Part shown: one piece after another, positions 34,599-38,590 of the stretch
How the letters are laid out: every line of letters starts with the position of its first letter
Numbering within the stretch: position 1 is the stretch's first letter
NCBI GenBank assembly: GCA_019056785.1
Contig: DXJV01000005.1
Location: forward strand, 20,716-84,715
Origin: Candidatus Heimdallarchaeota archaeon
GTDB lineage: Archaea; Asgardarchaeota; Heimdallarchaeia; JABLTI01
Direction: 5' to 3'
Length of the DNA: 64,000 nucleotides
The notes under the pieces: model-generated
Seen by the model: only the letters and a program-made list of their open reading frames with translations
Databases searched by the model: none
Told to the model about the DNA's origin: nothing
Translations under genes and position numbers: made by a program

Positions 34599-35198
34599 TC
34601 AAGCCTTCATGGCTTTTAAATTCTCGAAAAGAACTCTTCCGGCTTCGGTTGCTTTTCCTTGTCTGTTTGGGATAACTAAAAGTAGTGCACCTGTTTTTTG
34701 CCCGATAGAGGCCGCAACTATTTTGTTTAGAAGCTGGTGTTCCATAAGCAAGTCCAGTGAATCTTCGTCTCGTGCACGGCTTGTGTCTAATTCCCGCCTC
34801 TTTTTAATCTCTTCAGCAGTAGTTTCGATTAAAACCAGTAGTTTCGGATGAAATGCCTCTGAGACCCAGGAAGGAATGCCTTGAAGAAAGCTCCCTATAC
34901 CGGTTTTAATAGTAAAATGGGTGTCTACTATAACCACTTTCCCTTTGGCTCTTTCAGCAATCTCTAAAGCAGCTTGGCGTTGAATCTCCTTTTGGGCTCT
35001 TGGTGGAAGCTTTCGCATAGCATCTCGGTGTTTTACATTATAGTTTTTTTCAGCAATTTCCATCATAACAGTTCCATAGATAATTACAGAGATGTCGAAA
35101 TTCTCTGCTCGTGCAATTTTTAATGCTTCATTAATTACAGTAGTCTTTCCTACCCCAGGTATGCCACCAACAATAGCAATATAGCTTTCGTTGTTCAT
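34599..35198 (-). CDS. adkA: Archaeal adenylate kinase
   Basis: GIPGVGKTT, YGTVM, HRDAMRKL and VDTH. Confidence 0.93.
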   Translation of the reverse strand: MNNESYIAIVGGIPGVGKTTVINEALKIARAENFDISVIIYGTVMMEIAEKNYNVKHRDAMRKLPPRAQKEIQRQAALEIAERAKGKVVIVDTHFTIKTGIGSFLQGIPSWVSEAFHPKLLVLIETTAEEIKKRRELDTSRARDEDSLDLLMEHQLLNKIVAASIGQKTGALLLVIPNRQGKATEAGRVLFENLKAMKA

Positions 35199-35213: not shown

Positions 35214-36773
35214 TTAAAACATTAAATTGGTCAACAATTCGTTGATCTTTTTATATGTTCGTTTAGAAATGATGTTGTTCGTAAGCAGATATTCGAGTCC
35301 TTGTTTGACAGCCCCGGCAAATTCGCCTGTTGCAAGAAGATTTGTTGCTCGCAAGTTGTCAAAGGATTGTTTCAATTTCCTGTTAAATACCAATTCTTCT
35401 GCAAGTTTATCCGCAACCTCTTTGCCTCCGATCAGGGCGGAGTCTCGGTCGGCATTTGGATAATCAATTCGAGATCCTCCTCGTGGTTTAGTTAATGGTG
35501 GGATAACAAAATAACGGGTCTCTTTTTTATCTTGAAACCGAATTAAATAAAGAGAAAGCAAAATCGAGCGAGGAATGTTGCCGCTTATGGAAAAAGCTGA
35601 TTTATTTATCATTTCCTTGCGATTCTTGACAACGGCATCCATTTTTTTACAAAGCTCATCTGTATTTTGCTTAATCCTGTCTTTCATCTCTAGTAAATCC
35701 CCAAGAGAGCGGTCCCGTTGCATGCGAAGTTCGTCTAGTTCGTTTTCAGCATTGGCTTTCTTAACCTCATACTCAGTAATGGCTTTTTGTTTTCCCTCTT
35801 CAAAATTTTTCGTAATTTCATTCAAAGCCTTTGCAAGATTTTTCCGGTCATTTTCGAGAGTTTTAACTTTGTTAGCGATATTATCAATTTGCCCTTTGCT
35901 CTTGGACAAAAAAGATTGCATATTCTCACGGAATTTTGGTGTTTCAATAGAAGGGATGTCGTTTAATATTTTGCGTGCATGTTCTTGAATGGGATTGATC
36001 ATTCCTGTTAGACCAAGTGTACTGGATTCAAACTTCGAAAGCTCTCGAAAAATCGCTTGGTTAGCTTTTTCTAATTGAGAATCGATTATGTCATCTAAAC
36101 GCTCTTTGTAGCGTTCAATGCGTTCTTGAACCTCCTCTTGTTTGCTCTGGATTCTTGATGTAAATGTTCTTTCGATGTTCTCAATCTCCGAATTAATTTC
36201 TGCTAACCATTGGCGAGCGAGCTCTTGAAATCGTTCTTTAATTTCCGAGAACTGGGGGATTTCATTCAAATAGGTTATTACTTCAGCATTAATGCTATCC
36301 TCAAAACTGGGCAAAATCAATGGTTTGTCGATACGCCCTAATTCACTCGCAGTTTTTGCCAGAGTTATTGTGGATTTTGAGAAATTGTGATTAAAAAGTG
36401 GATAATTTTGTGTGTTTAAAATTAATGTATCATTTGCATCCTGTAAATTATTGGTAAAAGCTTTTAAAGTAGACGCATCTTGGACCGCTTTTAGATGGGC
36501 AATAACATTTGAAAGAGAAAGGTCATTAACTGATGTACCTCCACCATATATTCCAAGAGAATCGATAACCACAAGTCGTTGCTGCACAGAATCAAAATAA
36601 AGGCGCCAATAGAATTTCGATACTTGTGTTAAACGTTCTTTTGTCCGTTTAAAAAGTCCACCTTTTTTTATCTTATCACCAACCACTCCTATAACAAAAG
36701 CTAGTTCTGCTTCGAGAGGAATGTCTTTTCTATCTACAATAAAGGGAATAACTGTTTCCTCTTGGATACTCAT
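35214..36773 (-). CDS. Hypothetical long coiled-coil protein
   Basis: 519 aa; globular ends flank about 220 aa of E/K/Q-rich heptads. Confidence 0.75.
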   Translation of the reverse strand: MSIQEETVIPFIVDRKDIPLEAELAFVIGVVGDKIKKGGLFKRTKERLTQVSKFYWRLYFDSVQQRLVVIDSLGIYGGGTSVNDLSLSNVIAHLKAVQDASTLKAFTNNLQDANDTLILNTQNYPLFNHNFSKSTITLAKTASELGRIDKPLILPSFEDSINAEVITYLNEIPQFSEIKERFQELARQWLAEINSEIENIERTFTSRIQSKQEEVQERIERYKERLDDIIDSQLEKANQAIFRELSKFESSTLGLTGMINPIQEHARKILNDIPSIETPKFRENMQSFLSKSKGQIDNIANKVKTLENDRKNLAKALNEITKNFEEGKQKAITEYEVKKANAENELDELRMQRDRSLGDLLEMKDRIKQNTDELCKKMDAVVKNRKEMINKSAFSISGNIPRSILLSLYLIRFQDKKETRYFVIPPLTKPRGGSRIDYPNADRDSALIGGKEVADKLAEELVFNRKLKQSFDNLRATNLLATGEFAGAVKQGLEYLLTNNIISKRTYKKINELLTNLMF

Positions 36774-36914: not shown

Positions 36915-37961
36915 CTATCGCCTTTTCTTTCGCTTTTGTTTCTTTGTTTTTTCTTCCAATATTCTCTCCTCCTTAAGATAAGGGCAATTAACTTCATAAA
37001 GCGACCAAAGGCGTTCTAATTGATAGGCAATGTCTTCATTAGGTTTGCCCCCTTTCAATGAATAGAAACTACCATCATGAAGAGCATAAAGAATGGCTAA
37101 AGCTTGTAAATTGTCAAATTGCAAGTAATTTGAATATCCTTTCTTTTCTTCCACAACACAAAGTTTTCGATAGTGCTTACAGGGTTTGGGACAATTAAGG
37201 CATTGAGTGATGTTAGCTTTGACTTGATTCCGGTAAAAATCAACCTCAAAAGTGAATTTTTTATCGTGGACAAGCACAATGCCATCAGGTAATAATTCAT
37301 ACCCAATTTTCATAACTAAATTTTTGACCTTTTCAAAAGTATTCTTGTTAAAAATTTTGTAAATATTGGCTGGTTTGTTGCTGTTGGAAATGAAGGTATG
37401 ATACTCCCCGGAAATAATATCTTGGGCAATTTTTTGACCGATGATTTCAAAAACCGAGGAAATTTCTTCCAGGGAATTAATTTTCTTATAGAAAATGTTC
37501 CTTGATTGATCAGAAACATTGAGGTTATTTATTGTTCGATTAACTACTTCTCTATTGAAATTTTGCTCTTGGTTCATAGCTACAAAAGTGATGGGAATTC
37601 CTTTTGGGGCAATGCTTGCTAATCCTCTGACCAATTCAATATCCGAGGGGTTTTTTGTGACGATAATTGAATGGCAAACCCCAGAGAAATATGCTGCACG
37701 AAAGAGGTCAAAACGGGCTTCATTATTTATCAACCAAATGGACATGCATAAAGTGCCTAAACGTGTTTGAACTTTTGAAATTACAGGGTACATTCCAATA
37801 GTGTTTAAACAATTAACGTTGATGGCAGATTCTGACCAATTTCTTAATTGTTGGGCAAGTGTTTTAATGTCATCTGAAAAAAGTAGCAATTTGCTAAGAT
37901 AAATGTTTGGGGTTGTTTCTATTTCATTCTCTTCTGAGAAGCCTCTTCCAGATAAACTCAA
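36915..37961 (-). CDS. Degenerate Rab-like small GTPase domain + Cys-rich C-terminal domain
   Basis: YLSKLLLF...NTIG...SIWLINNEARF...YFSGV..IIV follows the Rab G-domain pattern; CLNCPKPC..C. Confidence 0.7.
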   Translation of the reverse strand: MSLSGRGFSEENEIETTPNIYLSKLLLFSDDIKTLAQQLRNWSESAINVNCLNTIGMYPVISKVQTRLGTLCMSIWLINNEARFDLFRAAYFSGVCHSIIVTKNPSDIELVRGLASIAPKGIPITFVAMNQEQNFNREVVNRTINNLNVSDQSRNIFYKKINSLEEISSVFEIIGQKIAQDIISGEYHTFISNSNKPANIYKIFNKNTFEKVKNLVMKIGYELLPDGIVLVHDKKFTFEVDFYRNQVKANITQCLNCPKPCKHYRKLCVVEEKKGYSNYLQFDNLQALAILYALHDGSFYSLKGGKPNEDIAYQLERLWSLYEVNCPYLKEERILEEKTKKQKRKKRR

Positions 37962-38194: not shown

Positions 38195-38590
38195 GTGAAA
38201 AATTTAAGTCAAAGAAAACCAAAACCTAAGAAAGGACAAAAAAGATCCTATCGCTCACGCCAAGAACAAGGCACCTCCTTCCAAATTACCGGTGCAGATG
38301 GGCAACCAGAGCACATACGAGTGAGATTGCCAAAAGAGGGCGAAGTTTTGGGTATTGTAACACAAATTCTTGGAGCCGACAGAATAAAAGTCAGATGCAC
38401 AGATGGAAAAACGCGAACAGTGCGCATTCCTGGAAAGCATCGCAAACGTCTGTGGATCAGACAAAACGATGTAGTTAGTGTGATGCCGTGGTACGGCTTA
38501 CAAGAAGATACTCGTGCAGATTTAGTTTATCGTTATAATCGAAATCAAGCAAATTGGTTAGAAGATAAGGGCTATATCTCTTTAGATTAA
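38195..38590 (+). CDS. eif1a: Translation initiation factor aIF-1A
   Basis: RVRLPKEGEVLG..QILG...VRCTDGKTR..RIPGK..KRLWIR. Confidence 0.96.
   Translation: MKNLSQRKPKPKKGQKRSYRSRQEQGTSFQITGADGQPEHIRVRLPKEGEVLGIVTQILGADRIKVRCTDGKTRTVRIPGKHRKRLWIRQNDVVSVMPWYGLQEDTRADLVYRYNRNQANWLEDKGYISLD

Follow-up and report, generated by a model that had tools for sequence, protein, structure and literature searches.

A degenerate relative of the Rab GTPases was studied in a 64,000-nucleotide stretch of DNA from Candidatus Heimdallarchaeota archaeon (assembly GCA_019056785.1, contig DXJV01000005.1, positions 20,716 to 84,715), here called the window. The gene lies on the minus strand at positions 36915-37961 of the window, where an intact open reading frame (ORF) encodes a protein of 348 amino acids (aa), termed pseudo-Rab, that is composed of a pseudo-G domain, an α/β domain carrying a Cys knuckle, and a polybasic tail. 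Sequence conservation and structural modelling make it probable that pseudo-Rab is a cytosolic adaptor with two modules, founded on a Rab-like domain that is catalytically dead; it would act constitutively and independently of nucleotide.

An intact gene under purifying selection

A first-pass annotation of the window, made by a model from the DNA sequence, had drawn attention to this ORF, which was found at exactly the position and with each of the peptide strings quoted there. The start codon is TTG, the earliest start possible past the upstream stop, and a Shine-Dalgarno-like GAGGG is located 7 nt before it. The G+C content at the ORF (~35-39%) is ordinary for the window. The 33 close homologues identified are ~345 aa in length, share 43-98% identity and derive without exception from metagenome-assembled genomes (MAGs) of Asgard/Heimdallarchaeota, with all NCBI entries of the family named 'hypothetical protein', and 63 alignment columns are invariant among the orthologues.

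The proportion of nonsynonymous differences (pN) in the pseudo-Rab gene was 0.31-0.36 and that of synonymous differences (pS) was 0.73-0.80, a range like that of the neighbouring genes cc519, adk and rio1. Synonymous sites were saturated (pS 0.72-0.80) in all comparisons, and the data hence support only that pN is much smaller than pS, and not a ratio of substitution rates (dN/dS). With pN so far below pS, the gene is not decaying but under purifying selection. A decaying pseudogene or a mis-called ORF, for which nothing speaks but the loss of the motifs and TTG as start codon, has next to no probability, and is refuted by the conservation data: intact full-length orthologues with the 63 invariant columns occur in dozens of MAGs, pN is much smaller than pS, the domain fold is predicted with confidence, the synteny is conserved, and GAGGG precedes the TTG codon.

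The N-terminal half is predicted to have a Rab-like fold

The pseudo-G domain spans residues 17-186 (37404-37913, minus strand) and was delineated by profile comparison, Foldseek, VIA-align and an AlphaFold2 (AF2) model. Taken alone, the 348-aa protein gave no match in Pfam or NCBIfam, Pfam Ras included. Sub-threshold Pfam Ras matches were present in 18 of 22 orthologues, and more distant members sharing the C-terminal domain passed the Pfam Ras gathering score (32-70 bits). A profile of the 22 orthologues was compared with the PDB and matched Ypt1/Rab1/Rab8/Sec4 with E values of 5.9e-7 (Ypt1) to 1e-5, gapless from β1 to β4, and Rab10 and Rab35 were also matched (whole list E 6e-7 to 1e-4).

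The AF2 model of the full-length protein, prepared from the alignment, had a predicted local distance difference test (pLDDT) score of 74.9, with the G-domain core at 75-90, and displayed the β-α-β order of a G domain. When this model was searched with Foldseek, Rab11/Ypt32, Rab8 and Rab1 were recovered, with a best E of 6.4e-9 and a template modelling (TM) score, by target, of up to 0.69; the named matches in the top 50 were all Rab/Ypt-family chains. The same model analysed by VIA-align gave Rab23 with Z 15.3 (160 residues, 3.2 Å), Ypt32 with Z 14.5 and Sec4 with Z 13.4. Profile and model comparisons together show residues ~17-186 to have, as predicted, the Ras/Rab G-domain fold of a six-stranded sheet and five helices, and the collinearity with Rab that had been read by eye at first pass is real and not an artefact of that reading.

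The top three VIA-align matches were all complexes of a Rab with its guanine nucleotide exchange factor (GEF), namely Rab23-Fuzzy/Inturned, Ypt32-TRAPPII and Sec4-Sec2, and the highest TM-scores in Foldseek were obtained for nucleotide-free Rab11-SH3BP5 and Rab8-Rabin8. The likeness of the AF2 model to GEF-bound or nucleotide-free Rabs is suggestive.

Loss of the nucleotide-binding motifs is ancient

The family was aligned with eight canonical Ras-family proteins encoded in the window's genome, and the motifs were mapped residue by residue. The former G1, or P-loop, site (SDDIKTLA, residues 29-36; 37854-37877, minus strand) aligns without gaps to the canonical GDGAVGKT, which has become S29-D-D-I-K-T-L-A36, so that the Gly, the Lys and the Ser/Thr are all missing at the canonical positions; conservation of the site is low (0.55). 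In the AF2 model helix 1 starts at residue 32 after a 2-residue loop that follows β1, and no P-loop is left. At G3 the canonical WDxGGQ is replaced by W76-L-I-N-N-E (37719-37736), at G4 the canonical NKxD is replaced by NQEQ, which is unconserved among relatives, and at G5 the canonical ETSAK is replaced by KKINS, while the Thr of G2 is retained as T54 of TIG. The destruction of G1, G3 and G4 described in the first-pass annotation was thereby confirmed, and its inventory was extended by the loss of G5 and the retention of the G2 Thr. Residues K33-T34, taken for a remnant of GK[ST], proved not to be one, as they lie two positions off the P-loop Lys/Ser and are unconserved in relatives.

The motifs were then tallied among 58 full-length relatives, comprising Heimdall type A proteins, type-B paralogues and Loki/Hel/Thor-type members of 320-400 aa. 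The GxxxxGK[ST] signature was found in 0/58 relatives as against 30/30 canonical Ras-family proteins of the same genome, a strict G3 in 0/58 as against 24/30, and NKxD in 3/58 (off-register) as against 26/30. The most distant members retain just the 'WD' of G3 and fragments of the P-loop. This series, distant members included, suggests that degeneration was graded and set out from a Ras-like ancestor in which Walker A had already been lost when the C-terminal domain was acquired. Since intact G1, G3 and G4 were found in no close or distant orthologue, the loss is old and fixed rather than a recent decay, and the alignments show it to be common to every relative found across the Asgard archaea. 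On these grounds we infer that the pseudo-G domain no longer binds nucleotide and is a pseudoGTPase of the class-i type. The first-pass reading of a nucleotide-independent G-domain scaffold or decoy would have been contradicted by a predicted fold other than a G domain or by intact motifs in close orthologues; neither was seen, which supports that reading.

It is highly improbable that the domain still binds GTP, ATP or another nucleotide through non-canonical residues and operates as an unusual switch. The G2 Thr (T54) and an overall fold that forms a pocket are retained, and there are precedents of atypical GTPases with altered motifs, a caveat also voiced in PMC12490416. Such binding is, however, hard to reconcile with a P-loop reduced to a 2-residue turn devoid of Gly, Lys and Ser, and the Asp of G3, the specificity Asp of G4 and the whole of G5 are gone, with replacements that are poorly conserved, which would be unexpected for a functional pocket.

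The switch face is conserved and the pocket is not

The face made up of switch I, the interswitch, switch II and β4 (residues 51-102; 37656-37811, minus strand) carries TIGMYP, SIW, RF.LFR and AYFSG and includes the dead G3 site. Its mean column conservation was 0.81, compared with 0.56 for the remaining G domain, 0.52-0.60 at the former pocket positions and 0.75 for the C-terminal domain. It holds 17 of the 26 invariant residues of the G domain (C51, T54, I55, G56, M57, P59, T66, G69, W76, I78, F84, F87, R88, Y91, S93, G94 and I99 in the 22 orthologues). The family motif of this face can be written TIGMYP..W..RF.QFR.AYYSG, and the RabF-like motifs TIGMYP, (M)SIW, RFxxFR and AY[YF]SG are invariant or nearly so, although degenerate relative to the RabF consensus (IGVDF / KLQIW / RFrsiT / YYRGA). 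The surface motifs that had been noticed as remaining are thus the most conserved part of the G domain. A conserved face beside a pocket that is not conserved is the pattern expected if the effector- and regulator-binding face of a Rab were still in use and the pocket were not, and the column conservation shows selection to act mainly on this face and on the C-terminal domain.

The genome of the window contains 35 Ras-family matches. The closest canonical relative of the pseudo-G domain among them is a GTPase of 185-196 aa on contig C84 (C84:26422-27009; L028:4956-5513, plus strand), with the switch motifs TVGMEP / SIWD / RFDVFR / FFKG, similar to those of pseudo-Rab; the switch I TVGMEP and switch II RFDVFR types that the two have in common are unusual. 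The neighbours of this gene (Trm112-like, PIG-L and AFOR) are uninformative about its function.

A face of this kind could also be explained by a decoy or regulator trap, in which pseudo-Rab would mimic the nucleotide-free or activated form of one particular canonical Rab-like GTPase and compete for, or permanently hold, its GEF, GTPase-activating protein (GAP) or effector, thus tuning a GTPase pathway rather than scaffolding a complex of its own. The conservation of the switch face above all other surfaces would fit such a role, as would the similar switch motifs of the C84 GTPase, the GEF-bound Rabs among the best structural matches, and a genome that offers many candidate regulators besides its 35 Ras-family matches. 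This explanation is nonetheless considered unlikely: a decoy alone would need neither a second conserved domain nor a polybasic tail, regulator genes are linked neither to pseudo-Rab nor to the C84 GTPase, and the divergence from canonical GTPases is so deep that Pfam Ras misses the protein of the window.

A C-terminal α/β domain with an inserted Cys knuckle

The C-terminal α/β domain (residues 199-326; 36984-37367, minus strand; boundaries from the domain model) ends at Cys326. Modelled alone from an alignment of 33 sequences, this region of ~150 aa gave a pLDDT of 85.5 and a predicted TM score (pTM) of 0.77. The order of elements is a helix, a three-strand meander, the Cys knuckle, a fourth strand, a loop with invariant G-[YFW]-S-N (GYSN in pseudo-Rab) and then three to four helices, and the model closes with a long helix and a K/R-rich tail. 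The domain is, as modelled, an autonomous α/β domain of no recognised fold that is confidently folded.

Searches for a relative of this domain gave no significant result. No PDB sequence was matched by its profile, the best Foldseek match had E 0.22, the best VIA-align match among 48,161 chains was an immunity protein at Z 4.5, matches in the ESM Atlas had TM below 0.5, and nothing significant was found in Pfam with 33 members. The weak structural matches fell on UEV/RWD/E2-like folds, chaperones of the type III secretion system (T3SS)/YbjN and the immunity protein, which are non-enzymatic binding modules. Pfam DUF5844 appeared weakly on 6 of 33 members and was set aside, since the match could not be repeated in the genome and the same model responded to unrelated controls too.

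The knuckle, CLNCPKPCKHYRKLC (37158-37202, minus strand), contains C254, C257, C261 and C268 together with H263 and is a putative structural metal (Zn) site. In the arrangement C254-x2-C257-x3-C261-x6-C268 all four Cys, which make up two close pairs in a short loop, are invariant in the 22 orthologues, and the segment was modelled with a pLDDT of ~88-94. A fifth Cys, Cys326, is near-invariant (>=90%). More widely, the CxxC..C..C pattern was present in 60 of 64 members, with spacing that varies among relatives (x3-6 and x6-12). The knuckle is missing from the type-B paralogue and from stand-alone forms of the domain of 119-148 aa, where only the equivalent of C268 is kept. This distribution indicates an insertion into an older autonomous domain, and an insertion favours a structural metal site over a catalytic or iron-sulphur (Fe-S) role; the Cys4 knuckle is thus probably a structural metal site, for Zn. 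The Cys cluster and basic tail pointed out at first pass are accordingly present and conserved, and what had been called a Cys-rich domain is better described as an autonomous α/β domain with an inserted Cys4 knuckle.

That the cluster instead binds Fe-S, or that its Cys are redox-active, so that the protein would change its interactions as a redox or oxygen sensor, is judged quite improbable. There are five conserved Cys in addition to His263, one beyond the need of a Zn site, and the host is an anaerobic archaeon of sediments or vents, such organisms being rich in Fe-S proteins. One relative gave a weak match to Fer4_10 (E 0.003), but this lies far below the cut-off, concerns 1 of 33 members and was judged to be Cys-pattern noise. 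Moreover, no Fe-S signature with the spacing CxxCx3Cx6C is known, and the spacing varies among relatives, and the first Cys residues are dispensable in the type-B paralogue and absent in stand-alone forms, for which a structural insertion is the better fit.

The protein ends in a helix and polybasic tail (residues 327-348, ...KTKKQKRKKRR; 36918-36983, minus strand), which takes the form of a long helix in the model. In pseudo-Rab 11 of the final 20 residues are K/R, and all 22 orthologues have 5-11 K/R in this span; the sequence of the tail is unconserved (0.48) and only its charge is kept.

Distribution and paralogues

Of the 201 Asgard genomes sampled, from seven families, 59 contained matches to the profile of the C-terminal domain, stand-alone genes included, and strong type-A orthologues were confined in this sample to the window's own family. 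The architecture of a pseudo-G domain joined to the C-terminal domain is Asgard-wide. Two proteins raised by the representative search, P0042 and P0043, are FN3/repeat proteins and not relatives.

The type-B paralogue of the window's own genome, located on contig C65 (L007:1498-2448, minus strand), is 316 aa in length, and another was located at L003:5001-5930. Its pseudo-G domain matched the type-A profile with E 1.6e-8, its knuckle is down to two Cys, and its tail reads CKKKKQKKEKE. In two distant genomes the type-B gene is convergent to a gene for a 446-451-aa protein that has no Pfam family and begins MGAAGRDFHNFN.

Stand-alone C-terminal domains (119-148 aa, no knuckle) were found at L022:2660-4681 (plus strand) and in L023 and L024, in two genera of the Asgard family f16. 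In that family the gene stands in a conserved co-directional trio between an Asgard profilin (E 2.8e-24 to PDB 5zza_P) and GAPDH, a possible link of the C-terminal domain to the actin/profilin system.

A conserved neighbouring gene as candidate partner

The next gene downstream of pseudo-Rab, 141 bp away, encodes a 519-aa protein that is a candidate partner (35214-36773, minus strand). In this protein a central coiled coil separates a globular N-terminal part from a C-terminal part, both of them conserved, and its relatives share 51-79% identity, which makes it more conserved than pseudo-Rab. It has no family in Pfam or NCBIfam, and searches there and in the PDB returned coiled-coil noise only. 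Searches of the ESM Atlas by features and by model shape placed it near uncharacterised clusters of ~450-550 aa from Asgard, Thermoproteota and Bathyarchaeota; this is a lead and not an alignment, and suggests that the 519-aa protein is part of a wider uncharacterised archaeal family. Strong orthologues were present in 4 of 4 genomes of the window's family and in no other genome of the sample. The 446-aa neighbour of P0040 was considered as a relative and found to be unrelated.

An archaeal adenylate kinase gene (34599-35198, minus strand; NF003122, 183.6 bits, cut-off 155) lies 15 bp downstream of the 519-aa gene and is probably co-transcribed with it. Archaeal adk is usually found beside secY in the ribosomal-protein cluster. 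On the other side, the divergent plus-strand neighbours in the window encode aIF-1A, the Rio1 kinase and arCOG04150, a KH protein universal in archaea. The surrounding genes are thus of kinds typical of archaea. The aIF-1A (38195-38590, plus strand; 131 aa) has a strongly basic N-terminal extension of ~36 residues, with the OB-fold match starting from residue 37; L001 and L002 have orthologues of 132-135 aa, and the extension is reminiscent of the N-terminal tail found in eukaryotic eIF1A.

The divergent aIF1A/Rio1 side and the order pseudo-Rab followed by the 519-aa gene were the same in the window and in loci L001, L002, L020 and L021, at 47-53% protein identity, and the pseudo-Rab/519-aa pair was also present in adjacent locus tags of at least five further NCBI MAGs. 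The gene order of the family is aIF1A/Rio1/KH, divergent pseudo-Rab, the 519-aa protein, adenylate kinase and inositol-1-phosphate synthase, in which the genes beyond the 519-aa protein were seen only at loci that were annotated or extended far enough.

Given these neighbours, pseudo-Rab might be an accessory factor in translation or small-subunit biogenesis, with a tail that binds rRNA and a function alongside the aIF-1A/Rio1/KH (Pno1/Dim2-like) cluster. The divergent aIF1A-Rio1-KH genes are kept in the window, L001, L002, L020 and L021, and aIF1A in L005, and a polybasic tail is compatible with RNA binding. The adjacency may, however, be passive synteny within one family, as the aIF1A-Rio1-KH cluster is conserved widely in archaea, also where there is no pseudo-Rab gene. 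Distant members of the family have other neighbours than those in the window's family, and Pfam scans revealed no RNA-binding domain signature. Such a role is held to be very improbable.

Proposed mode of action

The reading preferred here, an adaptor of two modules built on a dead Rab-like domain, can be put together as follows. The nucleotide-free 'switch' face would be frozen in one conformation, possibly like that of a nucleotide-free, exchange-factor-bound Rab, and with no nucleotide bound and the face so fixed, partner binding would be constitutive instead of cycling. The C-terminal α/β domain would supply another module for protein binding, to which the Cys4 (probably Zn) knuckle lends stiffness in most lineages, and the polybasic tail would tether the complex electrostatically to an acidic surface, be it of membrane lipids or of nucleic acid. 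The likeliest working partner in the window's own family would be the co-conserved 519-aa coiled-coil protein encoded directly downstream.

Several observations weigh against this adaptor model. With oligo-T tracts and a TATA-like element in the 141-bp spacer, the pseudo-Rab and 519-aa genes may have separate transcripts. Beyond the window's family, no relatives of the 519-aa protein were found beside pseudo-Rab homologues, and this partner thus cannot explain the ancestral function. The full-length AF2 model is only moderately confident, and its likeness to nucleotide-free Rabs may merely reflect a model built without ligand. Finally, degenerate G motifs do not always abolish nucleotide binding, which some proteins achieve in unusual ways.

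A bolder form of the proposal would see ancient, Asgard-wide, Rab-derived pseudoGTPases that have their switch face locked in a state resembling the nucleotide-free one, permanently hold an exchange-factor-type (longin-, roadblock- or TRAPP-like) partner, or a coiled-coil one, and bring it to an acidic membrane or RNA surface by means of a new Zn-knuckle domain and the polybasic tail. This is regarded as doubtful; if true, the closest prokaryotic relatives of eukaryotes would possess the logic of Rab, GEF and tether in a hard-wired form without a switch, either as its precursor or as an offshoot.

The small-GTPase expansion of Asgard archaea is central to ideas on the origin of eukaryotic membrane traffic, and published work has focused on active switches, while work on pseudoGTPases has to date been mainly on those of eukaryotes, with a few bacterial cases. 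No published description of a protein such as pseudo-Rab was found, nor any archaeal example of a pseudoGTPase in the searchable literature. The data imply that in several classes of Asgard archaea a dead Rab-like fold, too, was fixed long ago as a module for constitutive binding, and that this Rab-derived module was coupled to a C-terminal domain without known counterpart. The conserved switch face offers a handle for finding what Asgard Rab-like proteins bind, and the 348-aa protein, which is small, soluble-looking and conserved, is experimentally tractable.

Comparison with known systems

The C-terminal domain, as modelled, has a similar size to the UBC/UEV/RWD folds (E2 enzymes, the Tsg101/Vps23 UEV, and the RWD of kinetochore/FANCL proteins), which are possible relatives, and the same order of elements, with a helix, a four-strand meander and two to three helices. 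Folds of this type accounted for ~20 of the top 50 VIA-align matches (Z 3.0-4.0, root-mean-square deviation ~4 Å, 85-105 residues), which is below the noise level of the tool, and CesT/YbjN clusters appeared in the ESM Atlas search at TM<0.5. Homology to UBC was rejected at the level of profiles, the hhalign comparison with the three UQ_con proteins of the genome giving a probability of 0.2%, and Pfam UQ_con, RWD and UEV did not match members of the C-terminal domain family at E<=10, although for the RWD model its control was silent too. In contrast to E2s, the domain has neither an HPN motif nor an active-site Cys, and its loop after strand 4 reads GYSN...DNL; the UBC/UEV/RWD folds, for their part, have no counterpart to the Cys knuckle between strands 3 and 4. 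The three UQ_con proteins of the window's genome include two E2-like proteins of 226-255 aa with long C-terminal coiled coils (C52:10049-10813 and C47:89003-89680), and there is one plain 152-aa E2 on C84.

With respect to other divergent Asgard GTPases, a systematic survey left 159 divergent sequences initially unannotated, of which 35 were tentatively annotated later and ~124 were left. Accessions of the pseudo-Rab family were not found in those parts of the survey's supplements that were accessible, which is weak evidence. Rup3 is a Heimdallarchaeia-specific group of the Ras superfamily, found class-wide and with unusual insertions in the GTPase domain (bioRxiv 10.1101/2024.02.28.582541). 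Like pseudo-Rab, it is a divergent, Asgard-restricted offshoot of Ras with no eukaryotic counterpart, but pseudo-Rab has no large insertions, has lost its motifs, has gained a C-terminal domain and has close orthologues in one family only. Set apart in this way by the description of Rup3, pseudo-Rab is probably not a member of that group.

The canonical Rab-like GTPases (Ypt1/Rab1, Rab8, Rab11 and the Asgard RasL/Rab-like proteins) have the same predicted fold as pseudo-Rab and detectable homology to it, with RabF-like motifs at the same positions (TIG, the W of β3, RF and YYxGA). Thor-Rab (PMC10933270) and the MKD1 small GTPases are reported to be without a prenylatable C-terminal Cys, and pseudo-Rab likewise has none. 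Pseudo-Rab differs from canonical Rabs in being without G1, G3, G4 and G5 and in having the extra Cys-knuckle C-terminal domain of ~150 aa and the polybasic tail. Canonical Rabs cycle between GTP and GDP, which pseudo-Rab could not do if it is, as its motifs imply, nucleotide-free. By descent the protein belongs to the Ras superfamily, but without the defining G1, G3, G4 and G5 it should not be filed as a GTPase.

The closer parallel is with the eukaryotic class-i pseudoGTPases, in which a G fold that has lost its G motifs persists as a module for protein binding, and to which pseudo-Rab appears alike by predicted fold and by motifs. Nucleotide binding has demonstrably been lost in CENP-M, in p190RhoGAP pG1/pG2 (PMC5593906) and in AAGAB/Irc6 psGD (PMC12490416). 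The C-terminal domains of the eukaryotic proteins are unrelated to that of pseudo-Rab, whose host is an archaeon. The nearest analogue in architecture is AAGAB, a protein of ~300 aa in which an N-terminal class-i pseudoGTPase domain is followed by a C-terminal region. AAGAB was not among the top 50 Foldseek or VIA-align matches of pseudo-Rab, which were filled by canonical GTPases, and Pfam Adaptin_binding (PF10199) gave no match in the genome or in 22 family members at E<=1. AAGAB works in the assembly of membrane-traffic complexes and binds through the face opposite its switches (PMC12490416), whereas the face conserved in pseudo-Rab is the switch face itself.

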